64,000 nt of DNA from Candidatus Aldehydirespiratoraceae bacterium (GTDB lineage Bacteria > Actinomycetota > Acidimicrobiia > Acidimicrobiales > Aldehydirespiratoraceae). Of the stretch, positions 41,675-53,692 are shown piece after piece. The notes under the pieces are model-generated. The model saw only the letters and a program-made list of their open reading frames with translations. It had not been told where the DNA came from and ran no database searches. The DNA lies in the NCBI GenBank assembly GCA_047639555.1, contig JBLIOE010000001.1, positions 45,466 through 109,465 on the forward strand, in the 5' to 3' direction. Within the stretch, counting starts at the first letter, position 1. Every line of letters starts with the position of its first letter. A program made the position numbers and the translations under genes.

Positions 41675-42964
41675 CTACACGGGGGCGGGAATCTCGGTCA
41701 TGTCACCGAGGTAGGGCAGAAGCACCTCGGGCATACGGACCGAGCCGTCGGGCTGACGGTACGTCTCGATGATGGCCGCCCAGACGCGAGGCACGGCGAG
41801 ACCAGAGCCGTTGAGGCTGTGGACAAACTCGGTGCCCTTACCTTCAGTCGGCCGGAAACGAACGTTGGCGCGGCGGGCCTGATAGTCGGTGCACCAGGAA
41901 ACCGAGCTGACTTCAAGCCAGCGATCGGCGCCGGGAGCAAAGACTTCGATGTCGTAGGTGCGGGCGCCGGCCCCGCTGATGTCGCCACACGCGAGGTCGA
42001 GCACACGATGAGCGAGACCGAGATCGGCAATGGCGCTCTCGGCTCGGCCGAGAATCTCCATGTGCATGGCTTGGGCCTGGTCGGGCGTGCAGAAGGAATA
42101 GAGCTCAACCTTGTCGAACTCGTGCACCCGAAGCAGCCCGCGGGTGTCGCGGCCAGCCGAGCCGGCCTCGCGACGGAAGCAGGAAGTGTGGGCCATAAGG
42201 CGGAGAGGCAGGTCCGCCTCGTCGAGAATTTCGCCAGCCACCATGGAGGTGAGCGGCACTTCGGCGGTGGGGATCGCCCAGAGATCGTCGCGTTCGAGGT
42301 GGTAGGCGTCGTCGGAGAACTTGGGCAGGTGGCCCGTGCCGATCATGGTTTCGGTCTTGACGACCGTGGGCGGACGCACCTCTTCGAAGGCATCACGATT
42401 GCGGTCGAGACCGTAGTTGATGAGGGCGCGCAGGAGGCGTGCTCCGGCGCCGCGATACATGACGAACATGGAGCCCGACATACGGACAGCGCGGTCGACA
42501 TCGAGGATGCCGAGCTGCTCGGCGACCTCCCAGTGCGGCACCTTCTGATGATCGCCATAGCTGCCCGGGTGGAAGTTGGTGACCCGCACTTCAACGTTGT
42601 CGTCTTCGGTGAGCCCGTCGGGCGCTTCCGGTGACGGCAGGTTAGAGACGGTGAGCAGCAGGGAGCGGATGCGGGCCTGCAGCTCGTCGGCCTCTTCGCT
42701 AATGGCCTTCTCGCGCTCGCCCAGATCGCGGCTCTTGGTCTGCAGCTCGGTGGCTTCGTCGCCCTTGCCCTCTTTGTGGAGGGCACCGACCTGCTTGGAG
42801 ATTTGCTTCACCTCGGCCCGAATGTCGTCGCGTTCGGTGCCGATGGAGCGCATGCGGGTGTCGAGCACCAGCACTTCGTCGATCGTCGACGAGGACTCGC
42901 CACGACGCGCGATGGCCGCTTTCACAGCCTCCGGATCATTGCGAATCAGCTTGATATCGAGCAT
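41675..42964 (-). CDS. serS: Serine--tRNA ligase
   Basis: MLDIKLIR, IPTAEVP, FRREAGSAGRDTRGLLRVHEFDKVE, LNGSGLA. Confidence 0.98.
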   Translation of the reverse strand: MLDIKLIRNDPEAVKAAIARRGESSSTIDEVLVLDTRMRSIGTERDDIRAEVKQISKQVGALHKEGKGDEATELQTKSRDLGEREKAISEEADELQARIRSLLLTVSNLPSPEAPDGLTEDDNVEVRVTNFHPGSYGDHQKVPHWEVAEQLGILDVDRAVRMSGSMFVMYRGAGARLLRALINYGLDRNRDAFEEVRPPTVVKTETMIGTGHLPKFSDDAYHLERDDLWAIPTAEVPLTSMVAGEILDEADLPLRLMAHTSCFRREAGSAGRDTRGLLRVHEFDKVELYSFCTPDQAQAMHMEILGRAESAIADLGLAHRVLDLACGDISGAGARTYDIEVFAPGADRWLEVSSVSWCTDYQARRANVRFRPTEGKGTEFVHSLNGSGLAVPRVWAAIIETYRQPDGSVRMPEVLLPYLGDMTEIPAPV

Positions 42965-43043
42965 GACCTTGACGGTACCCGTTCAGGGGCCGCGCCCCCG
43001 GCAAATTGAGGCGTGCAGGCCACAGTTCTGCGGCCAACGCATC

Positions 43044-43895
43044 TCAATTTCGAGTGCGAGAGGCGGTGCCGCGTGTGTGGCGGGCGGTCTCGTCGGCCTC
43101 GCGCTCTCGGGCGGCGTACCTGAAGAAACGAATGGCGATCAGGATCCACAGGTAGAAGCCGCCGACGACCTTCATGACGGCCCCCGCAAGCTGCTGGTCG
43201 TCGGTGGGACTCAGGCCCCAGAGATTGGTATCGGTGTCGTAGGCCTCGTAGACCACACCCTCGGCAAAGGTGAGCCAGCCGGCCGGCACTGTCGGCACGA
43301 TCGACATCAAGAACAGATAAATCAACTTTGCGGGCTCGCTGAGATGCACTTCCTTGAGTGGGCCCAGGACCGGAAACCACATCAGCAGTGCGGAGAAGAA
43401 GACACCGAGGTGGATCAGATAGTGGAACGATCCATTCTCAGAGCTGAGGTTGACGACCGCACCCCAGTGGGTGAGCACCTGGAACAGGTTGAAGACGACG
43501 CCCGCCACCACTGGCTTCGTCAGGACGCGAAGCACACGGGAAACGCCACCACCGTCGAGCACCAACAAGCGAGCCAGCCACTCCGGCATCGCCAGGAGCA
43601 GCAGCGGCGGAACGATAAACGCAATGAGCAAATGCTGGAACATGTGCACCGAGTAGAGATACTTCTCGGCGATGTCGTGCATTGGATAGTCGGCGGCGAT
43701 CCAGAGCAGGAGCACGCCGACAGCAAAGAACCGCTTCTGCGATGTGGTGACAACCGGCTGGCCTTCGGCCACCACAAGGGGACCGATCTGGCGAGTGGCA
43801 TAGATCCCAAGGGTGACGATGCCGCCAATGAGGAGCCAAACTTCTGGGTGGGCTTCGAAGGCCCACGCATTCACGGCGAGGAGGGGCGCCAGCAT
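43044..43895 (-). CDS. ctaG: Cytochrome c oxidase assembly factor, caa3-type CtaG family
   Basis: SVHMFQHLL..PPLLLL, DQQLAGAVM. Confidence 0.88.
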   Translation of the reverse strand: MLAPLLAVNAWAFEAHPEVWLLIGGIVTLGIYATRQIGPLVVAEGQPVVTTSQKRFFAVGVLLLWIAADYPMHDIAEKYLYSVHMFQHLLIAFIVPPLLLLAMPEWLARLLVLDGGGVSRVLRVLTKPVVAGVVFNLFQVLTHWGAVVNLSSENGSFHYLIHLGVFFSALLMWFPVLGPLKEVHLSEPAKLIYLFLMSIVPTVPAGWLTFAEGVVYEAYDTDTNLWGLSPTDDQQLAGAVMKVVGGFYLWILIAIRFFRYAAREREADETARHTRGTASRTRN

Positions 43896-43899
43896 GGAG

Positions 43900-44235
43900 C
43901 TATGCCCAGAACTGGAAGGTGCTCAACGCAATGCAATAGACGCCAGTTGCGAGAAACAAGCCACCCACGAACATCCGGGTGAACATGGGGTTGTCCTGCT
44001 TCAAGTGCATGAAGTAGGCCGCAACCATCCAGAACTTCACGACCATCATGAACATCAGGCTGGCAATGACCACGCTGTTGTTCTCAAATATCGGGATCGC
44101 CGACTCAAAGTAGGTGGCCACCTCGACGCCGGTGATGGCCGCAAGAATCAGCGCGATCTTGATGTACGCCCAGTCGGACGGATGATCGTGAACATCGACC
44201 TCGTCGTGGGCCTCGGTGGTGACAGATTCAGTCAT
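43900..44235 (-). CDS. Cytochrome c oxidase subunit IV (prokaryotic COX4 family)
   Basis: YIKIALILAAITGVEV, KFWMVAAYFMHLK. Confidence 0.88.
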   Translation of the reverse strand: MTESVTTEAHDEVDVHDHPSDWAYIKIALILAAITGVEVATYFESAIPIFENNSVVIASLMFMMVVKFWMVAAYFMHLKQDNPMFTRMFVGGLFLATGVYCIALSTFQFWA

Positions 44236-44248
44236 ATGAAGTCTCCGC

Positions 44249-44881
44249 TTACTCGACGGGGATCAGGTAGATGACAGTGAAGATAAAGATCCACACCACG
44301 TCTACGAAGTGCCAATAGAGACCAACGATCTCAACGGTCTCCGTGTGTTTCGGGGTCAGCTTGCCCTGCTGTGACGCCACGAAGAGCGACATCAACATGA
44401 CAACGCCTAGGGCCACATGGACACCATGGAAGCCGGTGAGCGTGTAGAACGCCGAGCTCGCAGGGTTGCCGGTGAAGCCCACGCCCTCACGAACGAACGA
44501 GGTGAACTCGTAGACCTGGCCACCGATGAATACGGCACCAAGCATCGCCGTAGCGAGGAGCCAGGCGCGGGTGGCGGGGTTGTCGCCGCGGGTGAGAGCC
44601 GACAGCGCGAGCACCATGGTGAGCGAGCTCATCAGAAGGACAAACGAACTCACCGAGGTGAACGGAATGTCGAAGATGTCGGTAGGGATCGCCGTGTTGT
44701 CCGGCCCGGGACCACGGCGGGTCTTGTAAAGCAGGTAGGTGGAGATCAAGCCACCAAACAACAAACATTCCGAACCGAGGAACGTCCACATTGCCAACTT
44801 GGTGTTGGAGATGCCGGTGGACGTGCCGTGTTCTTCCTGGCCCGTGGGCGTGTCGTGAACCTCAACGGTTGCCGTGGACAT
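44249..44881 (-). CDS. ctaE: Cytochrome c oxidase subunit III
   Basis: MWTFLGSECLLFG, LTGFHGVHV, LYWHFVDVVW. Confidence 0.95.
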   Translation of the reverse strand: MSTATVEVHDTPTGQEEHGTSTGISNTKLAMWTFLGSECLLFGGLISTYLLYKTRRGPGPDNTAIPTDIFDIPFTSVSSFVLLMSSLTMVLALSALTRGDNPATRAWLLATAMLGAVFIGGQVYEFTSFVREGVGFTGNPASSAFYTLTGFHGVHVALGVVMLMSLFVASQQGKLTPKHTETVEIVGLYWHFVDVVWIFIFTVIYLIPVE

Positions 44882-44883
44882 GC

Positions 44884-46893
44884 TCACTCCCCTCCTTCGG
44901 CGCCGGCGGTGACCGCTTTGGTCTCAGCGCTCTGGTCGTCGCCACTGTCATCATCATCGTGATGATCATCGTGACCGTGGTCGGCATCCGGGTCATCGAC
45001 CGGTTCGAGAGCCCACGAGTAGAGGGCGAGGCCGGAAAGGAGTCCACCAACGACACAGATCCAGAGATTGAAGATCAGGCCATAACCAATGAGCGGCATA
45101 CCAAGGGCGAGCACGAGCGGCCAGAACGATGGCGAGGGGAGATGTACACCCTTGGCCGAGCCGTCTTGGGCGACTTCTTCGATCGTCGCGATCCGGACGA
45201 CACGCTTGTCCTCGTCGTAGCTGTACTTGCGGTGCCACCATTCGTCGAGTCCTTCGACCGTCGGGATGGTGTCGAAGTTGTGCTCCGGCGTGGGCGAAGG
45301 AATCATCCATTCGAGGCTACGAGCGTCCCACGGATCGGGACCCGGCGCTGGCAGGTTCGGGGCATCACGGAGCGACTTCCACACGTTGAAGAAGAAGACC
45401 AACACCGAGAGGGCGATGGTAAACGAACCGATCGTGGCGACCATGTTCCAGAACTCGAAGCCGAAGCCGGGCGAGTAGGTGTCGATACGACGACTCATCC
45501 CCTGCAGGCCGAGTATGTGCATTGGGCCGAACGTGAGGTTGAAACCAATGAGCATGACCCAGAAGTGGACCTTGCCCAATGTTTCGTTGAGCATGTGGCC
45601 GAAGACCTTGGGCCACCAGAAGTAGAGGCCGCCCATAAGACCAAGGACACCGCCACCGAAGATCACATAGTGGAAGTGGGCCACGATGTAGTAGGTGTCG
45701 GTCTGCTGCGTGTCGGCGGGAGCCAGCGAGTGGGTGACACCCGAGAGACCACCGATGGTGAACATCGCCACGGTGCCGACCGAGAACAGCATCGCCGTGG
45801 TGAAGCGCAACTTGCCGCCCCACATCGTGGCGAGCCAATTGAGGATCTTCACGCCGGTCGGGACCGCAATGAACATTGTCGACAGTGAGAAGGCGGCGAC
45901 AGAGAACGGACCAATACCGGATACGAACATGTGGTGCGCCCACACGCCCCAGCCCATGAAGCCGATCGCGATGCCCGAGAACACCATGAACGAGTAGCCG
46001 AAGAGAGGCTTGCGGCTGAACGTGGGAATGATCTCTGAGATCACGCCGAAGGCCGGCAAGATAATGATGTACACCTCGGGGTGCCCGAATATCCAGAACA
46101 AGTGCTGCCACAGAAGTGGATCACCGCCCGTTTCCGGATTAAAGAACTGCGCATCGAAGAGGCGGTCGAACATCAGCAGGAACAGCGCCACCGTGATCAC
46201 CGGGATGGCGAACAGGAGCAGGAACTGCGTGACGAGCAGCATCCAAGTGAGGACCGGCATGCGGAACAGAGACATTCCCGGCGCCCGCATGTTGAGGACA
46301 GTGACGATCAGGTTGATGGCCGAGACCAGCGAAGCAACACCGGCGATCAGCAGACCCAGGGCATAGAAGTCGACACCATGGCTCGGCGAGAAAGCGAGGC
46401 CGGAATTCGGCGAGTAGCAGAACCAACCGCAGTCAGCGCCGCCGCCACCAACGATCCACGACGAGTTCAGGAAGACCGCACCGGAGATCCACACCCAGAA
46501 GCTAAGGGCGTTGAGACGGGGGAAGGCCACGTCTCGAGCGCCGATCTGGAGCGGAATCAGGTAGTTCGCAAACGCCGCCGCGAGCGGCATGATGAACAGG
46601 AACACCATGGTGACGCCGTGCATGGTGAAGACTTGGTTGTACACCTCAGCACTGAGAACCTGGCCTTCCGGAGCCGCGAGCTGCACTCGGATCAGCAGTG
46701 CTTCAATGCCGCCCACCACGAAGAAGAACATCGCGGCAACGCCGTACATGATGCCGATCTTCTTGTGATCGACCGTGCTGAGCCAGTCTCGCCAACCGTT
46801 GCCGCCCTGAGGGCGGGTCAGTGCGCCGAGAGGGCGCTCGACATTGGATACGTCACCCGATGCAAGGGCGAGCGGTTCTTCGGCGATCGCCAT
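44884..46893 (-). CDS. ctaD: Cytochrome c oxidase subunit I (A1 type)
   Basis: All six His ligands present (TMHG, GHPEVY, WAHH, AHFHY); D- and K-channel residues present; two extra C-terminal TMs. Confidence 0.98.
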   Translation of the reverse strand: MAIAEEPLALASGDVSNVERPLGALTRPQGGNGWRDWLSTVDHKKIGIMYGVAAMFFFVVGGIEALLIRVQLAAPEGQVLSAEVYNQVFTMHGVTMVFLFIMPLAAAFANYLIPLQIGARDVAFPRLNALSFWVWISGAVFLNSSWIVGGGGADCGWFCYSPNSGLAFSPSHGVDFYALGLLIAGVASLVSAINLIVTVLNMRAPGMSLFRMPVLTWMLLVTQFLLLFAIPVITVALFLLMFDRLFDAQFFNPETGGDPLLWQHLFWIFGHPEVYIIILPAFGVISEIIPTFSRKPLFGYSFMVFSGIAIGFMGWGVWAHHMFVSGIGPFSVAAFSLSTMFIAVPTGVKILNWLATMWGGKLRFTTAMLFSVGTVAMFTIGGLSGVTHSLAPADTQQTDTYYIVAHFHYVIFGGGVLGLMGGLYFWWPKVFGHMLNETLGKVHFWVMLIGFNLTFGPMHILGLQGMSRRIDTYSPGFGFEFWNMVATIGSFTIALSVLVFFFNVWKSLRDAPNLPAPGPDPWDARSLEWMIPSPTPEHNFDTIPTVEGLDEWWHRKYSYDEDKRVVRIATIEEVAQDGSAKGVHLPSPSFWPLVLALGMPLIGYGLIFNLWICVVGGLLSGLALYSWALEPVDDPDADHGHDDHHDDDDSGDDQSAETKAVTAGAEGGE

Positions 46894-46894
46894 G

Positions 46895-48196
46895 TCACTC
46901 CACCTCCGTGGCCGCAATGCGTTCATCGGTAGGACGAGGGCCCAACGTTTCGAGGAAAGCAATCACGTCATTGATCTGTCGTTCAGAAAGGTTGAGGTTG
47001 GGCATACCCCGGGGCAAGGCGCCGTCCGGCAGATCGTTGGCCAGGTTGGCCTTCACTGCGTCCGGGTCGCGGATCCAGGCCGCGAGATCGTCACGGTTGA
47101 GGGTGCCGTCTTCGTTGTTATAGAGATTGAAGATGCCACCGGCGAACGTGGTGTTGTTCGCCAGGTGCGTGAGATTCGGGGCCGAGCCGGCGAGCGTCGC
47201 GGCGCCGTCGTAGGCCTCACCGTTGACGAGATCGTTGAGACCGCCAACGAGGTGGCACGAAGCGCACTGGATGGTGAACAGGTCGAGGCCGCGGAGCACT
47301 TCATTCTCAACATCGTCGACACTGCCAACGCCGGTTTCGCGGTAGGCATCGACGTAACCCTGGAGGCTCTCGTCGAACGTGGCGTCGGACATCTGCATGT
47401 CGATCCAACCCTGGAAGTCGGCATCAGTCATGGCCACAGCCTGCATACGCATGCGGCTGTGAGACAGACCACAGAACTCCGAGCATTGACCGAAGTAAAC
47501 CCCGGGTTCGTTGGCTTCGATCTTCCACGGCGTGTAGCGACCCGGCACTGCATCTCGGGTGCCGTTGAGGGCTGGGATCTTGTGGGAGTGGATGACATCA
47601 CGGGAGGTGATGATCAGTTCGACCTCGGTGAGGGTCGGGATTGCGAACTGGCCGGAGGTGACGATGTCGGCCGGTGGAAGATCACGGGGGTCGCCAAGAT
47701 CGGCGGTCTTGATCTGTGAGCCGTCGAGGTAGTAACGATATTCCCACCACCATTGCTGGCCGACCACAACGATGGTCGGCTCCCATTCGACCGACTCGCC
47801 GGCAACATCGATGGTGATCGAGTTGTCGTCGGTGCCGTTGATATCGATGTGGGTGATGATCGTGAAGACACCGATCACCGCCATGATGAGCGCCGGAACG
47901 ATGGTCCAGGCGATCTCCAACGAGTTGTTGTGGGAGATCTGCTCGGGGAACTCATCGTCGTCTTCGTAGGAGGAAACGCCGTGCTTGAAGGCGAGGTAGA
48001 GCACCGCTCCACAGATGGCCACGAGGACCACACCGGCAAGAATGAAGACCGGATAGGCGAGGTTCCAGATGGTCTCGGCGACCTCGCTCTGTGGATCAAG
48101 GGTGTCGAGCTCAGCGTCGCTGGCGCAACCAGCGGTGAGCAACCCAAAGAGAAGAAGAAGTCCGACGCCCGGCAGGCGGCCGCGGATCTTGAACAT
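46895..48196 (-). CDS. ctaC: Cytochrome c oxidase subunit II fused to a cytochrome c domain (caa3 type)
   Basis: Lipobox LTAGC, DVIHS, CuA motif CSEFCGLSHSRM, heme c motif CASCH, distal GMP; start 48196 or 48235. Confidence 0.95.
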   Translation of the reverse strand: MFKIRGRLPGVGLLLLFGLLTAGCASDAELDTLDPQSEVAETIWNLAYPVFILAGVVLVAICGAVLYLAFKHGVSSYEDDDEFPEQISHNNSLEIAWTIVPALIMAVIGVFTIITHIDINGTDDNSITIDVAGESVEWEPTIVVVGQQWWWEYRYYLDGSQIKTADLGDPRDLPPADIVTSGQFAIPTLTEVELIITSRDVIHSHKIPALNGTRDAVPGRYTPWKIEANEPGVYFGQCSEFCGLSHSRMRMQAVAMTDADFQGWIDMQMSDATFDESLQGYVDAYRETGVGSVDDVENEVLRGLDLFTIQCASCHLVGGLNDLVNGEAYDGAATLAGSAPNLTHLANNTTFAGGIFNLYNNEDGTLNRDDLAAWIRDPDAVKANLANDLPDGALPRGMPNLNLSERQINDVIAFLETLGPRPTDERIAATEVE

Positions 48197-48197
48197 G

Positions 48198-49049
48198 TCA
48201 CTCACCGTCGTTGTCTCCGTCAGTGTGTTCGGCATCTATTTCGTCGCCGTCTTCGTCGTAGGACTCGTCGGCATCGCCGGCTTCGTCATCGCCCTCGGTC
48301 TCTTCATGTTCGTGGAATTCGCGCTCGCCATCGACTGCGGCCCAGACCCCACCACCAAGCACGGCGACAGCGACAACCACCGAAAGGCCGGCCACGACGT
48401 TCTTGCCGAGCTTGATCGACTCGTTGGCCGCAATAATTGCGATTCCGACGATGATCACCGCAACGACGCCGGCAACAACCACGGCACCGAGCTTCGAAAC
48501 GTTGAGCATGATGCGGGAGATCGCCAGCACCCCGACAGCAACAACAAGACCACCAGCGGCGGGAATCTCGATCGGCGCCATAATGCGATTACGGAGGGCA
48601 CGGTTGGCTTCGGGATCACCCGTGGCCCGATCGGCCCAGGCGTCCATCATCCAGGAGATGGAGACAAGACCCGCAGCCACAAGGCCAGCGATGAAGATCG
48701 CCGTATTGAGAACGAGGCCAACCGCCATGGTGGCAACGGCGAAGGCGCCGATGATCGGCCAATGGCTCGGCGTGACCGGCAAGGTGGGGGCGATGTCGTC
48801 GACCCCCATGTAGTCGGCCTGATCGGCGGGATCCGCGTCGCGGAAGGTGATCAGCGTGAGAGCGATGCCGATGGCGCTGACCCCAAGCCCAACGAGAACG
48901 CCATAGCCGACATGTTCGCCAACACCGCCCTTCCAGCCGAGGCTGAGCGGTCCGACGTGGTTTCCACCAGACGTGTAGCCATAGAGGACGCCGGCGGTCG
49001 CCAGAGCGACACCGATGCCAAAGAAGAATTTGAAGCCCGAGGTGAACAC
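48198..49049 (-). CDS. Membrane protein with CtaF-like (actinobacterial subunit 4) region and acidic tail
   Basis: About 7 TMs, TPSHWPII motif before a helix pair, in the oxidase operon; the family call is tentative. Confidence 0.6.
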   Translation of the reverse strand: MFTSGFKFFFGIGVALATAGVLYGYTSGGNHVGPLSLGWKGGVGEHVGYGVLVGLGVSAIGIALTLITFRDADPADQADYMGVDDIAPTLPVTPSHWPIIGAFAVATMAVGLVLNTAIFIAGLVAAGLVSISWMMDAWADRATGDPEANRALRNRIMAPIEIPAAGGLVVAVGVLAISRIMLNVSKLGAVVVAGVVAVIIVGIAIIAANESIKLGKNVVAGLSVVVAVAVLGGGVWAAVDGEREFHEHEETEGDDEAGDADESYDEDGDEIDAEHTDGDNDGE

Positions 49050-49056
49050 TTGATCC

Positions 49057-49647
49057 CTACTTCGTGACGTAGATGACGTACCAGGCGATCGCCCACATGG
49101 CGACGACTGTGTTCCAGTAGAACGCCGCCGCAGCGACGGAATCGGCCTTGCGAGGACCGAATTGCCCGACCAAAGCCCGCAGGAAGGTCAGAACAATGAA
49201 CACCGTCGCAGCGATAAGGAACGCTGCGAAGGCGCCGTTGACGACGAAGAACATGAACTCAGCGGTGGAACCGTCGAGCGCAAAGCCCGTGTCGTTGATA
49301 ATGAACCACATTTGGTTGAACACCGCGGCGCCGAACACCCCCGAGAGGGCTAGGGCGACGATTGTATTCTTGCGGTCGTCGTTGTTGATTGCCTGCACGG
49401 CCCACTGCACGGTGACAGTCGACAAGATCAGTGTGGCGAAGATGAAGCCGGAAGGGCCGAGCTCAACAACTCCCGACGGGAACCATTCGGTGCCGGCGGT
49501 GCGAGCGGTGCCACGTTCGCTGATGTAGACGATGATGACGCCCACGAAAGCCATGAACGAGGCGGCCGACGCAAACATCGTGCCGACAAGCACGGTGCGG
49601 GGTCGGGTGACCTCCGCGGATGGGAGGCCAGTAGTGGTCGCAGTCAT
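49057..49647 (-). CDS. Degenerate cytochrome c oxidase subunit III paralog
   Basis: Five TMs colinear with CtaE; TLILSTVTVQWA and AAFYWNTVVAMW..YVIY. Confidence 0.8.
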   Translation of the reverse strand: MTATTTGLPSAEVTRPRTVLVGTMFASAASFMAFVGVIIVYISERGTARTAGTEWFPSGVVELGPSGFIFATLILSTVTVQWAVQAINNDDRKNTIVALALSGVFGAAVFNQMWFIINDTGFALDGSTAEFMFFVVNGAFAAFLIAATVFIVLTFLRALVGQFGPRKADSVAAAAFYWNTVVAMWAIAWYVIYVTK

Positions 49648-51324
49648 TTAGGACTCCTCTCCCTCATCGGAGGGTGAATCTGAGGCATCGAGCAGCGGGG
49701 TTTCGGAGGTGACTCGGGCAGGCGCTTCGGTGAACGAACCACCGACGGTGGACCATTCGAGGGTCTGACCATCCCAGGGGTTGTCCGAACCAGGCTCGCC
49801 GGAGCGCATTGCCTTGGCGAGGGCGGCCACGAGGCCGAGGGCGCCGAGTCCGACCAGAAGAATTCCGATCAGCGACACGACGTTGAGCACATCGGCAGCA
49901 TCCTCAGTGACCACTCCGAGAGGGCTATTGGGGGTGTCGAGGAAGCCGTTGGCCACCTGCCCACCACCGAGTAGCAACGCACCACCGAGAAGGCTGAGCG
50001 TCACCATGCGACCCATCATCGAGGGAAGTGCGTGGCCACCGATCTTCGGGGCCCAGAACCAGAATCCGCCGATTGCGGACGCAATCGCACCAAGAAGCAC
50101 GAGGTTCATCACACCAGAGATGGCGATAGTGCCCATGACACCGGTCTGGGTGACGACGGCGCCCAATTCGAGCGGCTCGATCACTCGGGCAACGCCGGCG
50201 ACGACGCCAAGAGCAACGATCAGGACGCCACCGAGGGCGCCGAGCAGGTGCGCAGGCGGGAGTCCGGCGATGTTGCTGCGGCCCCGCAAGAGAGAATCAC
50301 CGATGCCACCGATGAAACCGAGCACCGGGATGATCGCCGCGATGCCGAAGACGATGAAGATGAACTTCTGGTCGTACTGGACGTTGGCCGCAAGGTCGAA
50401 CTGGAAGTAGGGCTGGCTCCAGGCGCCAAATGACACCAGACCGAAGAGACCGATCATCGCCATCGAGAGGCCGTGGCGGGAGGCCTTCACGCCCGCTGCC
50501 ACGGGGGCAACGGAACCCAGAATGCCGAGGGCCGGAATGGCGAAGGCGTAGACCTGCGGCTGTTCGACCAGCCAAGCAACCTGCGCCCAGATGGAGGTGT
50601 CGCCGTTGAGGCCACCGCCGAAGGTGCCAGGGCCGTTGTGAAGGTCGACGTAGGCGACGAGGAGGTTGGCCAACAGCACCGGAAGGGTGAGGAGCCAGAC
50701 CGCCGTAGCAACCAGCATCGACCAGGCAAACAATGGCGTGCGCATCAGGGTCATGCCCTTGACACGCAACGAAACGACGGTGGTGGCAATACAGACCGAG
50801 GCGAGCAGCAGGGAAATGATGACCATGCCCATACCCGTGAGGGTGAGGGCAATGGCGTCACGTTCGTCGCCGGTCGCCCGGTCAAATGCGCCCCAGCCGC
50901 CACCGGCGAACACCGAGGCGATCATGATTCCGGCGCCAAGGACGAAGCCCCAAACCGCGGCCAGAGCGGCACGAGGGAAGGCAATGTTGGTGGAGCCAAC
51001 CTGCATCGGCACGACCACGGTGGCCAGACCAATGAACAGCGGCATCGCAACAAGGAGAGCGAGGCCGATGCGGTACAGGGCCCACATCTGAAGGAAGGCG
51101 TTGTCGCCGCCGAAGATGTCGACCGTGTCGGCATCGAGGCGTTCGAACCCGATGAGCACGCCAACAACGACGGCACCAATCAGGAGAAATACGCCGGATT
51201 TCATCCACATGCGGCCAATGGCCTTGTGGTCCGTCGTGGTGAGCGCGTCGTAGAGCCCAGCCGCCGCGGGCGAGGGGGCCGCCGAGGCAGTATCAGTGGC
51301 CGGCGGTGTGTCGGTCATCGTCAT
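49648..51324 (-). CDS. Cofactor-ligand-less cytochrome c oxidase subunit I paralog
   Basis: TTDHKAIG, PMQVG..AFPR, PQVY and NPWDGQTLEW colinear with CtaD, but all six His ligands replaced; GGAGG RBS. Confidence 0.88.
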   Translation of the reverse strand: MTMTDTPPATDTASAAPSPAAAGLYDALTTTDHKAIGRMWMKSGVFLLIGAVVVGVLIGFERLDADTVDIFGGDNAFLQMWALYRIGLALLVAMPLFIGLATVVVPMQVGSTNIAFPRAALAAVWGFVLGAGIMIASVFAGGGWGAFDRATGDERDAIALTLTGMGMVIISLLLASVCIATTVVSLRVKGMTLMRTPLFAWSMLVATAVWLLTLPVLLANLLVAYVDLHNGPGTFGGGLNGDTSIWAQVAWLVEQPQVYAFAIPALGILGSVAPVAAGVKASRHGLSMAMIGLFGLVSFGAWSQPYFQFDLAANVQYDQKFIFIVFGIAAIIPVLGFIGGIGDSLLRGRSNIAGLPPAHLLGALGGVLIVALGVVAGVARVIEPLELGAVVTQTGVMGTIAISGVMNLVLLGAIASAIGGFWFWAPKIGGHALPSMMGRMVTLSLLGGALLLGGGQVANGFLDTPNSPLGVVTEDAADVLNVVSLIGILLVGLGALGLVAALAKAMRSGEPGSDNPWDGQTLEWSTVGGSFTEAPARVTSETPLLDASDSPSDEGEES

Positions 51325-51448
51325 GGTTGCAGGTGTCCTCCGACAGATGCGCCCGACAGCAGGGGCGCAAACTGTTGCTTCGTTCGTTGGCGCACTTCGA
51401 TCACCGCCGCGGCACGCGACGACACCCGAAGTGCAGTACCGAGACGGC

Positions 51449-51512
51449 AGCCTACAGGGCCGCGCGGCCCCGGTTGTAAACCGGGCGGCAGAGGAATTTT
51501 GGCGGATTTTTC
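51449..51512 (-). promoter_or_regulatory. Candidate promoter of the oxidase operon
   Basis: TAGGCT (-10-like, 51449-51454 on minus), TTTACA and A-tracts upstream; spacing is non-canonical. Confidence 0.35.
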
Positions 51513-51525
51513 ATCCGTCGGCCTC

Positions 51526-52422
51526 TCAGAACCCGTTCCGGATGATTTCGTCGGCCGCCATTGCCCCAAACAGCAGGGTCACATAGGTGATTGACCACCC
51601 AAAGAGACGCATGGCGCGGGCCGGTTCGGGGCGACGAAATACCTGCACCGCGAGGCCGGTAAACACCGCACCCAGCACAATTGCCGCCACGTAGTAGGTG
51701 ATGCCCATGCTGGCGACCGGGCCAAACACCAGCGTGAGCACCCACAAAACGACGGTGTACATCACGATTCGGGTGACCGTGGTCTTCAGCGAAGCAACGG
51801 CCGGCAGCATCGGCACATCGGCCGCTTGATAGTCGTCCTTGTAACGGATGGCCAAGGCCCAGAAGTGGGGCGGAGTCCAGACAAAGATGATGGCGAAGAG
51901 AATGACGGGCGGCCAGTCGAGCCCATTGGTGACTGCGGACCAGCCCACGAGGACGGGCACGGCGCCCGCGGCGCCACCGATGACGATGTTGCTGGAGGAC
52001 GTGCGCTTCAACCACATCGTGTAAACGAACACGTAGAACAGTGTGGCGGAAACGGCGAGCACGGCCGAGAGCAGGTTCACGAAACCCCACAGCCAGACGA
52101 ACGAGACGATCTCGACGACGAAGGCGAAAATTAGTGCTTCGCGAGGCGTGACTTCGCCGGTAACCAGTGGACGGCCTTTGGTGCGTTCCATGAGACGATC
52201 AATATCGCGATCGATGTACATGTTGAACGTGTTGGCACCGCCAGCCGCAAGCGTGCCGCCGACCACAGTGGCAACCATGAGCCAGAGGCCGGGAACGCCA
52301 CCTTCTGCGACCACCATCGTGGGCACAGTGAGGATCAGCAGCAGTTCAATAATGCGCGGCTTGGTCAGCGCGATGAAGGCGAGGGCGCGCGGACGCTGCT
52401 TTGGGGGTGCGGTGGCAGTCAC
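51526..52422 (-). CDS. ctaB: Heme o synthase (protoheme IX farnesyltransferase)
   Basis: LTKPRII, NMYIDRDIDRLMERTKGRPL, WTPPHFWALA. Confidence 0.97.
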   Translation of the reverse strand: MTATAPPKQRPRALAFIALTKPRIIELLLILTVPTMVVAEGGVPGLWLMVATVVGGTLAAGGANTFNMYIDRDIDRLMERTKGRPLVTGEVTPREALIFAFVVEIVSFVWLWGFVNLLSAVLAVSATLFYVFVYTMWLKRTSSSNIVIGGAAGAVPVLVGWSAVTNGLDWPPVILFAIIFVWTPPHFWALAIRYKDDYQAADVPMLPAVASLKTTVTRIVMYTVVLWVLTLVFGPVASMGITYYVAAIVLGAVFTGLAVQVFRRPEPARAMRLFGWSITYVTLLFGAMAADEIIRNGF

Positions 52423-52481
52423 GGATCCGAAGGATACGGCCGACAAGGCACGACCGCCCAATGGGGCCGTAGCCTTTCCAT

Positions 52482-53408
52482 GTGAGTCCGGCCCGATACC
52501 TCTCCCTCACCCGAGCAGCATTGTGGTCGTTGACCATCATCGTCATCACCGGGGCGGCCGTCCGCCTCACCGGCTCGGGTCTCGGCTGCAGCGATTGGCC
52601 GAACTGCGAGGAAGACCAGTTCGTTTCCGATCTGTCCTTTCACCCGGCGATCGAGTTCGGGAACCGGATGTTCACCGGTGTTGTCACCATTGCCGTGATC
52701 GCCGCGGTGCTCGGATCGCTTCGGCGAGTGCCGCGCCGCACAGACCTGGTGTGGCTGTCGTGGGGTCTCGTCGCCGGTGTGCTCGCCCAAATCATTCTTG
52801 GCGGCCTCCTTGTGCGGACCGAACTCGACCCACGGTTCACGATGGGACATTTCCTGCTCTCCATGGTGCTGTTGTGGAACGCGGCGGTGCTGATGCATCG
52901 GGCTGCGCAGCCCGAACAGGTCGCCGTCGCTTCGTGGGAATGGGATATGGACGCGGCCACGTCCCACGCTCGTCTGCTTCGACCCGCGGGGCGAATCGCT
53001 CTGCTTGCCGGCGGGGTCGTGTTGGTGCTCGGCACAATCGTGACAGGCAGCGGCCCACACTCGGGCAGCGACGAAGCCGAAGTCGCAGAGCGGCTGCCGT
53101 TCGCTCTCCGCGAAGTCACTCGGCTGCACAGCCTCGCGGGCCTGATCTTTCTGCTGGGCCTCGCCGGCATTCTTCTTTATGCCCGAAAGCACAACCGGGT
53201 GCGGGTCGTCGCCGCGGCACAGGTGGTGGTGTCGCTTATCGGCGCCCAGATCATCGTCGGTTACTGGCAGTACTTCACGGGGGTGCCGGTATTGCTCGTG
53301 GGTATCCACGTGGCCGTCGCAACGTTGACGTGGATCTCGTTGGTTCGCCTTGAGCTCGAAACGCGCCGGACATCGATGCCCGAATCCGTGCTGGCGAAAC
53401 TGCCATGA
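52482..53408 (+). CDS. ctaA: Heme A synthase (COX15/CtaA family)
   Basis: [30 protein letters not shown], conserved His in TM helices. Confidence 0.93.
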
Positions 53409-53692
53409 CCGCGCCGACAACCATCGAACGTCCAGAAGTTGTCGACGTGACCGATTTGTCGCGGCCGTGGAAAGTGCTTGTTTGGGACGACCCGATCAAC
53501 CTTCAGTCATATGTCGCCTTCGTCTTTCGCAGCCTGTTTGGGTTCTCTGAGGAGAAGGCGCACCGTCTGATGATGGAGGTGCACAACGACGGTCGTGCGG
53601 TCGTCACTTCGGGGCCGAAGGAGAAGGCGGAGATGGATGTGTTCCGTCTTCATGAGCACGGACTCTGGGCGACCATGGAGCACGACTCGTGA
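53405..53692 (+). CDS. clpS: ATP-dependent Clp protease adaptor ClpS
   Basis: [30 protein letters not shown]. Confidence 0.95.

Follow-up and report, generated by a model that had tools for sequence, protein, structure and literature searches.

Why should the genes for a respiratory oxidase be headed by a second subunit I from which the ligands of heme and copper have gone? The question is raised by a 64,000-nt stretch of DNA from Candidatus Aldehydirespiratoraceae bacterium (assembly GCA_047639555.1, contig JBLIOE010000001.1, positions 45,466–109,465, forward strand), referred to here as the window and numbered from its first nucleotide. On its minus strand, at 43044–52461, lie nine co-directional genes in the order ctaB-PAR1-PAR3-UNK-COX2-COX1-COX3-COX4-CtaG. 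The last five belong to a caa3-type oxidase; the three that follow ctaB form the module of interest. A first-pass annotation, made from the letters of the stretch, had taken these three for a cofactor-less but maintained module at the head of the oxidase operon. The analysis presented here gives them about an even chance of being a noncatalytic structural partner of the caa3 oxidase, a catalytically dead membrane core. The three genes are:

49648–51324, minus strand: PAR1, a COX1 paralog of 558 residues (PF00115, 123.6 bits; TIGR02891, 190 bits)
49057–49647, minus strand: PAR3, a COX3 paralog of 196 residues (PF00510, 37.6 bits)
48198–49049, minus strand: UNK, a membrane protein of 283 residues without a Pfam or NCBIfam family

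PAR1 aligns with the true COX1 of the operon over its full length (24% identity, E 5e-38, BLASTP). Its score exceeds the cut-off of the family profile PF00115 (34.8 bits) and falls far below those of the equivalog profiles for functional CtaD (TIGR02891, cut-off 670.75 bits; NF050116, 165 bits against 880). None of the six histidine ligands is left (two of the low-spin heme, one of the high-spin heme and three of CuB), whereas the true COX1 has all six; the module is cofactor-less, as had been supposed. Tyrosine occupies the first heme a ligand position, glutamine, glutamine and proline the CuB positions, and residues other than histidine the heme a3 position and the second heme a position. 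The D-channel aspartate is replaced by asparagine and the glutamate of the HPEVY motif (the E286 equivalent) by glutamine, and the K-channel lysine is gone; the motif tyrosine is kept. The roles of the entrance aspartate, the HPEVY glutamate and the helix VIII lysine we take to be those ascribed to them in A-type oxidases. The CuB triad survives in none of the 42 paralog open reading frames (ORFs) examined, and all six histidines are present in every true COX1 from the same loci that aligns across all six positions.

The fold itself has been retained. The AlphaFold2 (AF2) model of PAR1 has twelve long helices, the COX1 fold with its 12 transmembrane (TM) segments, with a predicted local distance difference test score (pLDDT) of 79 and a predicted template modeling score (pTM) of 0.85. 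A Foldseek comparison with the PDB gives 85 chains at E ≤ 1e-3; the top ones are all COX1 (E ~1e-17, TM-scores 0.72–0.79), the best being 6adq_F (0.79). Among 25 diverse paralogs from group B, the larger of two groups in the tree described below, 50 positions are at least 85% conserved, and 41 of these are common to true COX1: structural glycines, prolines and tryptophans, the AFPR loop, the R-G-P loop and the TLEW motif. Only nine conserved positions are specific to the paralogs, mostly small or hydrophobic residues together with R38 and E61, and no conserved polar cluster replaces the active site in these 25 proteins. Such conservation, with no new polar site, is typical of a scaffold rather than of a newly acquired catalytic or transport function. 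PAR3 is a five-helix, CtaE-like homolog of COX3 (24% identity to the true COX3, E 5e-10, BLASTP). It exceeds the PF00510 cut-off of 23.8 bits over profile positions 79–255 and remains below that of NF050119 (48.9 bits against 190); in the alignment the conserved glutamate and histidine of true COX3 are replaced.

The third protein, which the first-pass annotation had called CtaF-like, merits that description in its N-terminal half only. By its sequence relationships UNK appears to be a chimera, a CtaF-like half joined to a 3-TM anchor left from a membrane-bound blue-copper protein. Its AF2 model (pLDDT 77.5) shows eight helices, of which seven are long. Residues 1–145 are CtaF-like, helices 3–4 resembling COX3 helices 1–2, and residues 146–240 are a 3-TM anchor homologous to that of a blue-copper protein designated X. 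The likeness to CtaF is distant: UNK scores 13 bits against PF12270 (E 0.24; cut-off 26.9) and three orthologs score 15–19 bits, all below the cut-off. A UNK profile matches the CtaF chains 6adq_H and 7q21_F at E 0.12–0.17 over positions 4–133, nearly the whole chain length, and its positions 85–146 align at E 0.004 with helices 1 and 2 of canonical seven-helix COX3. The top Foldseek match of the model is the CtaF chain 7q21_F (E 0.47), with none at E ≤ 1e-3, and a protein-cluster look-up gave leads only, in the form of unnamed clusters and one automatically named "Cytochrome c oxidase polypeptide IV" at 0.91.

The architecture of actinobacterial oxidases offers a rationale for the CtaF-like half. 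According to passages of PMC8361435, CtaE and CtaF together make up subunit III in these enzymes, CtaF giving helices 1–2, and surfaces of CtaE and CtaF mediate III–IV contacts. The true COX1 of the window is extended at its C-terminus (44884–45100) by two helices matching the latter half of CtaF (PF12270 positions 69–125), the equivalent of COX3 helices 1–2 fused to subunit I. Because PAR1 is without the extension that true COX1 has, UNK would supply COX3 helices 1–2 for PAR3.

The anchor half has its counterparts in caa3 operons of other orders of the class, where six loci encode protein X (~240–260 residues) directly after CtaG. UNK profile positions 142–256 match X in these six sister-order loci at E 1e-15 to 2.5e-19. 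X consists of the 3-TM anchor and a C-terminal cupredoxin of the plastocyanin/azurin type (PF00127/PF13473) with the copper motif C-x2-H-x2-4-M; it also gives weak SoxE matches. In L062 and L066 long frames span the match; the other four are:

L061:5423–6187: protein X
L063:6851–7570: protein X
L064:5433–6158: protein X
L065:1656–2444: protein X

In UNK of the window, helix 7 is followed by an acidic tail of 43 residues, which has three histidines and gives no cupredoxin match. A search of 1.84 billion representative proteins with the UNK profile gave 319 matches at E ≤ 1e-30. Of the 150 best representatives, 130 have at least 250 residues and 51 of these at least 330; only seven keep the copper motif. 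Forty-four of the 51 long forms have a cupredoxin-like domain without copper ligands, which appears from the sequences to be an intermediate state of degeneration. A C-terminal domain of ~100–150 residues, beta-rich, cupredoxin-like and lacking both copper ligands and a Pfam match, is seen in family f7 (L024:4545–5723) and in many representatives. The 79 short forms, like that of the window, have a median of seven Asp/Glu and three His in their last 40 residues. In many UNK orthologs an invariant GER(E/D)F..H motif is followed by low-complexity tails rich in His and Asp/Glu, with H-x-E-E and H-G-D-D repeats (window 48198–48330). The composition of these tails suggests metal binding on the outer face.

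The three proteins are predicted to associate. PAR1 (residues 20–535), PAR3 and UNK (residues 1–250, the scored partner) were co-folded in three runs with three controls. The interaction prediction score from aligned errors (ipSAE) was 0.79 (runs 0.79, 0.83 and 0.79), and the best control gave 0.00; when the score was calibrated, 58 of 80 solved complexes attained this mark, as did 2 of 110 mismatched pairs. The runs agree in at least 78% of contacts, with a partner pLDDT of at least 66, and the confident contacts bring UNK residues 3–145 against PAR1 helices III–V and VII–VIII and the first helix of PAR3. The models thus lend support to an I'-III'-UNK subcomplex, though a similar solved complex, CtaD/E/F, exists and the success of the co-fold may reflect memory of it.

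Whether the module belongs with the oxidase can be judged from its distribution. UNK was used as the marker because the PAR1 profile did not separate paralogs from true COX1 (which scores 220–250 bits against it). Ten matches of that profile in other orders (L044–L053) had looked paralog-like and were rejected: each belongs to a second, intact aa3 oxidase with all six histidines. In 151 genomes drawn evenly from the order, caa3-type COX1 was counted at ≥60% identity to that of the window. Full-length UNK is present in 104 and caa3-type COX1 in ~102, and cross-reading of the two result tables gives:

Caa3-type COX1 and UNK: ~101 of 151 genomes
Caa3-type COX1 only: 1 of 151 (G498, with the gene 750 bp from a contig end)
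UNK without a full caa3-type COX1: 3 of 151 (G060, G487 and G518, fragmented assemblies)
Neither: 46 of 151

Presence and absence track almost perfectly, and this supports the tie between module and caa3 oxidase that had been proposed. Four genomes with neither (G057, G043, G050 and G054; loci L147–L150) were fetched. They have no caa3-type operon and possess a different aa3 operon, with a short COX2 that lacks the cytochrome c domain and a COX1 of 44–47% identity to that of the window. In two of these four loci a small ORF after COX1 gives weak matches to the COX1 tail and to CtaF.

The module occurs in a single order only, which the records label Acidimicrobiales. Across the phylum (401 genomes), full-length UNK occurs in 20 of 22 genomes of the order and in none outside it, where 64 genomes give a partial match to the anchor only. 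It was not found in the other orders of Acidimicrobiia that were searched; the UNK profile matches there only through positions ~140–260, except in G071. The synteny, for which a check across Acidimicrobiia had been suggested, is kept within Acidimicrobiales and does not extend to those other orders. The G071 match (C13:54428–55045) is the sole one outside the order to reach the N-terminal half of UNK (positions 38–236, E 9e-11), and lies in a 715-residue frame adjoining the COX1 of that genome.

Within the order the genes are well kept. A search with PAR1 finds a paralog-grade match in all 36 genomes of the same family, 35 of them with E ≤ 1e-75 and 38–73% identity; the remaining genome (G018) has only fragments, of 43–51% identity, near a contig end. 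Where both genes of a same-family genome lie on one contig, the paralog is ~4.4 kb from true COX1. In all 30 loci taken from other genera and families of the order, a COX1-like gene stands upstream of COX2 and COX1 on the same strand, and the order ctaB-PAR1-PAR3-UNK-COX2-COX1-COX3-COX4-CtaG is preserved up to the contig ends; UNK in L033 and PAR3 in L034 escaped BLAST and were located by inspection. The ratio of nonsynonymous to synonymous substitution rates (dN/dS; Nei–Gojobori method, NG86; 45 within-genus pairs) is 0.26 for PAR1, 0.25 for PAR3 and 0.24 for UNK, against 0.11 for ctaB, and falls to 0.08 in the closest PAR1 pair. In a few relatives the true COX1 or UNK lies in two frames or has one in-frame stop, whether real or an assembly error (L025:6919–9050; G405, G041, G060 and G045).

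The history of the paralogs parallels that of the oxidase. In a maximum-likelihood (ML) tree of 73 COX1-like proteins, from which eight same-genus rows, one duplicate and two fragments had been left out, the true COX1s form one clade separate from the paralogs, with a support of 100 in the Shimodaira–Hasegawa-like approximate likelihood ratio test (SH-aLRT). Two groups make up the paralogs, a small one of 7 rows (A) and a large one of 26 rows with a support of 100 (B). Families in group A also branch at the base of the true COX1s, and the paralog tree is a mirror of that of true COX1, which agrees with vertical co-inheritance from the ancestor of the order onward. The end branches of the paralogs are long (0.2–2.9, against 0.05–0.4), and long-branch joining must be reckoned with inside the paralog groups. 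The distance matrices of PAR1, PAR3 and UNK are each correlated with the COX1 matrix (r 0.81–0.84, partial r 0.60–0.69) as strongly as the COX2 matrix is, a weak support because shared phylogeny confounds and inflates such correlations. Taken with the gene order and the dN/dS values, the mirrored tree bears out the earlier view that the paralogs are maintained rather than decaying.

Comparison of the relatives indicates how the sites came to be empty; from the sequences, cofactors appear to have been lost stepwise while the proteins were kept. The PAR1 orthologs of the group A loci L026, L031 and L043 keep all three heme histidines, and that of L032 keeps at least two, its first position lying beyond the locus end. 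The HPEVY glutamate is retained in L026 and L043 and is aspartate in L031. In all four the first CuB position is arginine, and the others are Ala/Thr and Gly/Pro. These basal loci, in which heme histidines occur together with an intact type-1 cupredoxin at the end of the UNK ortholog, are:

L026:2501–5714
L031:7761–11001
L043:7696–11001
L032:8011–11007

Other lineages have lost more. L030, L037, L039 and L033 keep only the bis-His pair of the low-spin site, several lineages keep a single heme histidine, and none remains in 14 of the 27 tabulated loci or in the family of the window. On the copper side, group A orthologs of UNK carry a cupredoxin that scores above the PF13473 cut-off in L026, L032, L054, L043 and L038 and below it in L031 and L033. 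The C-x2-H-x2-4-M motif is intact in UNK of six of the 27 same-order loci, all six of which keep at least one heme histidine in the PAR1 ortholog; the copper motif is lost in L038. In three basal loci a gene for a thioredoxin-like protein of 182–231 residues lies between UNK and COX2 (L033:5288–5836, L043:7193–7741 and L034:7557–8252). Its WCAPC or TCPPC motif looks TlpA/ResA-like by eye, and there is no such gene in the window.

Homology sets the direction of change as one of loss: the ligands are present in true COX1, and the cupredoxin in protein X. It follows that the ancestral module would have been a CuB-less relative of the oxidase with two hemes and a blue copper, of which the window is the end state. 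The basal forms in L026, L031, L043 and L032 look like an undescribed CuB-less relative of the heme-copper oxidases, with two hemes and a blue copper, that may still be redox-active; they may constitute a distinct redox enzyme, or an extra electron-entry branch, never described before. The observation of the first-pass annotation that there is no second subunit II needs a corresponding amendment. It is correct for the genome as it stands today, with one PF00116 match, and less apt for the putative ancestor, whose module would have had its own type-1 cupredoxin and a heme-binding I'.

The remaining genes of the locus bear on how the module is made. Those of the run, and the divergent gene beside it, are:

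51526–52461, minus strand: ctaB, heme O synthase of the UbiA family (PF01040, 223 bits), upstream of the module
46895–48235, minus strand: ORF of COX2 with a fused cytochrome c domain, caa3 type (PF00116, PF02790, PF00034; TIGR02866, 159 bits, above cut-off)
44884–46962, minus strand: true COX1, A-type, with its start at 46893 in the feature list (PF00115, 527.7 bits; TIGR02891, 702 bits, above cut-off)
44249–44887, minus strand: true COX3, five-helix form (PF00510, 79.5 bits)
43900–44235, minus strand: COX4, prokaryotic subunit IV, COX4_pro (PF03626, 41.4 bits)
43044–43895, minus strand: CtaG, the Caa3_CtaG caa3-type assembly factor and final gene of the run (PF09678, 138 bits)
52482–53408, plus strand: ctaA, heme A synthase (PF02628, 66 bits), divergent from ctaB

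From PAR1 to CtaG the genes are separated by 0–13 nt or overlap (TAA-ATG, 7 nt, TGA-C-ATG, TGA-C-ATG and so on), and a GGAGGA lies 8 nt ahead of the PAR1 ATG. The only larger gap, 201 nt between ctaB and PAR1, falls outside 43044–51324. The likely start of COX2 is the Met at 48196, followed by a lipobox-like signal, while the ORF continues to 48235; the translation shows CXXCH and CuA motifs. Stop and start codons are coupled along the run, so that the eight genes PAR1 to CtaG are probably coupled in translation. The compact run flanked by ctaB and ctaA is as first annotated, and the ORFs of PAR1, PAR3 and UNK are all full length and uninterrupted. In the 4.15-Mb genome (90 contigs, 96% complete) profile searches find two PF00115 matches and one for PF00116, that of COX2, so no second subunit II is encoded in this assembly; the cytochrome b gene is on another contig. 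A consensus scan of 42500–53500 found two promoter-like sites (2.0 expected from shuffles) and eleven terminator-like sites (8.1 expected), none above chance, and the limits of the operon are for this reason set by gene spacing alone. No RNA runs occur among the 24 sequencing runs listed, all of them DNA metagenomes from ice, seawater and sediment.

Several observations converge on a structural role. The co-occurrence with the caa3 oxidase, the translational coupling, the chimeric nature of UNK and the III–IV contacts of CtaE and CtaF described in passages of PMC8361435 together argue for a noncatalytic subcomplex that stays with the oxidase. The module would have arisen by duplication in the ancestor of the order, at a stage with two hemes and type-1 copper and without CuB, and would then have lost its cofactors step by step while the proteins were retained. 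In the window, PAR1 would be a subunit I' able to bind neither heme nor CuB, and PAR3 a five-helix subunit III' completed by the CtaF-like half of UNK. The three would form the I'-III'-UNK subcomplex, be made together with the caa3 oxidase and remain attached to it, as a pseudo-protomer or as a docking platform.

A number of points weigh against such a role. The paralogs have a rate of evolution roughly three times that of COX1 (mean Kimura distance 1.4 versus 0.47). The co-occurrence counts come from related genomes, a few of them flagged as unpublished, and are not independent events. Sister orders have a similar caa3 operon without the module, which cannot, then, be intrinsically needed for a caa3 oxidase. 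The co-fold covers I'-III'-UNK only, so that it is we who infer the attachment of the module to the true oxidase and its structural role; moreover, the confident interface takes in the CtaF-like half of UNK and not the anchor half. In terms of the model, the anchor may bind elsewhere, as X presumably binds the true oxidase in sister orders. Finally, the tails rich in His and acidic residues that many UNK lineages possess would fit a role in metal handling equally well.

A more far-reaching form of the structural reading is tentative and, on balance, somewhat doubtful. The caa3 oxidase of Acidimicrobiales might be an obligate asymmetric assembly, in which a working I/II/III/IV protomer has a dead I'/III'/IV' one as its permanent partner, and the whole path to this state might be preserved in living lineages: from two hemes and a blue copper without CuB, through a one-heme form and then one with a ligand-less cupredoxin, to the empty scaffold.

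Among the alternatives, the likeliest is a part in biogenesis. The dead core could act transiently in the formation of the caa3 oxidase, as an assembly factor or template absent from the mature enzyme; its possible tasks include holding COX2, COX3 or CtaG, or passing on copper or heme A. The module separates ctaB/ctaA from the structural genes and shares an operon with CtaG, and the His- and Asp/Glu-rich tail of UNK, seen in the 79 short forms, sits on the side of the ancestral cupredoxin. The WCxPC thioredoxin-like gene directly after UNK in three basal loci would also suit such a role. PAR1 of the window lineage, however, has no residue able to hold heme or copper, the window's UNK tail is mostly acidic with only its three histidines, and three large, translationally coupled membrane proteins would be a costly chaperone; sister orders, besides, assemble a similar caa3 oxidase without the module. 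We regard the assembly role as unlikely.

Alternatively, I'-III'-UNK might work on its own, as a proton or ion conduit or as a sensor, and share only a promoter with the oxidase. The co-fold does give a self-contained three-subunit complex, and ions might in principle pass through the emptied heme and CuB cavities and the former proton channels. Against this stand the lack of any polar or charged network conserved inside the helices of the 25 diverse paralogs and the fact that the module is never found without the caa3 operon, save in the three fragmented assemblies. An independent function thus seems improbable.

Residual redox activity is very improbable. It would require PAR1 to bind a heme or a metal through residues other than histidine, for example Tyr84 at the former heme a position or Gln255 and Gln304 at the former CuB. 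These replacements are indeed fixed among the 119 closest homologs of PAR1, where the ligand columns hold Gln in 119, Gln in 119, Pro in 118 and Tyr in 106, and basal relatives keep two or three heme histidines. Across the order, however, the same columns vary (V, A, L, G, T, S, D and others), and both axial ligands of the low-spin heme are gone along with the proximal ligand of the high-spin heme. The Tyr and Gln replacements are fixed only within the family, which makes a ligand function unlikely. That the module is a neutral, unexpressed remnant of a tandem duplication in decay is hardly credible: the paralogs do evolve faster than the true subunits, and no RNA data were found, but the ORFs are full length and intact in every one of the 30 same-order loci and in 104 of the 151 genomes, and dN/dS values of ~0.25 (0.08 in the closest pair), ribosome-binding sites and coupled stop and start codons likewise speak against it.

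The noncatalytic partner envisaged here can be set beside known systems. PAR1 and PAR3 are homologous to subunits I and III of the A-type caa3 core (Thermus thermophilus 2yev, Bacillus ctaCDEFG) and have the same fold, and an intact example of that core is encoded in the same operon. They differ from it in that PAR1 is without the six histidines and the proton-channel residues, PAR3 without the conserved Glu and His, and the module without a CuA subunit of its own. In the III2IV2 supercomplex (M. smegmatis 6adq/6hwh, C. glutamicum 7q21), passages of PMC8361435 describe a subunit III that is likewise split, into a five-helix CtaE and CtaF. Residues 1–145 of UNK match CtaF weakly and are predicted to dock on PAR1 and PAR3 in the co-fold. 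Unlike CtaF, UNK has three extra helices from another protein and a PF12270 score below cut-off, and the complex that it would join is cofactor-less.

Other divergent members of the heme-copper oxidoreductases have been found by genomics, with changed active-site residues. In the gNOR, sNOR, eNOR, bNOR and nNOR families, as given in the parts of Murali et al. 2024 (PMC11214002) that treat them, the active-site histidines are completely conserved except for one His-to-Asp change in gNOR. The paralogs described here, unlike those families, are without the whole CuB triad in every member, and in most the heme ligands are gone as well. Membrane-anchored carriers of the sulfocyanin SoxE or halocyanin type resemble protein X and the basal UNK forms, which carry the PF00127/PF13473 domain inside an oxidase operon, whereas UNK of the window has lost the cupredoxin domain altogether; a likeness to the SoxM supercomplex is assumed by us as well. 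Noncatalytic paralogous subunits are familiar in hetero-oligomers, as with the alpha and beta subunits of F1-ATPase. There too a duplicated catalytic subunit is kept for structure; the literature search turned up no comparable case among heme-copper oxidases, and here it is a whole three-subunit core that has been duplicated.

Our literature search yielded no description of a COX1 paralog without cofactors or ligands, in agreement with the earlier remark that no characterised example was known; the supplements of PMC11214002 (Dataset S1 and supporting information), which might list such sequences, lay outside this search. In the databases these proteins are named "cbb3-type cytochrome c oxidase subunit I", "cytochrome c oxidase subunit I" or "hypothetical protein". 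With such labels, metabolic reconstructions of marine and freshwater Acidimicrobiales may count the paralogs as a second terminal oxidase. Few membrane enzymes have been studied as thoroughly as the heme-copper oxidases, and a I/III/IV core without cofactors, maintained by selection through a whole order, would show that their scaffold can have a function apart from oxygen chemistry, be it in the architecture of the oxidase or supercomplex or in assembly. The graded relatives, from hemes and blue copper through one heme site to none, would offer a natural experiment on the path from respiratory subunit to pseudo-enzyme and on the contribution of an empty scaffold.

The taxonomic labels of the records are largely consistent. 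Eighty related loci are labelled as Acidimicrobiales, Acidimicrobiia or Actinomycetota metagenome-assembled genomes (MAGs), including Ca. Aldehydirespiratoraceae and Ca. Microthrix, and two of the MAGs labelled Candidatus Microthrix (L082 and L094) hold UNK. A UNK relative of 58% identity is present in L080 (CAXMSE010000038.1), labelled "uncultured Gammaproteobacteria bacterium", which is probably a mis-binned Acidimicrobiales contig.

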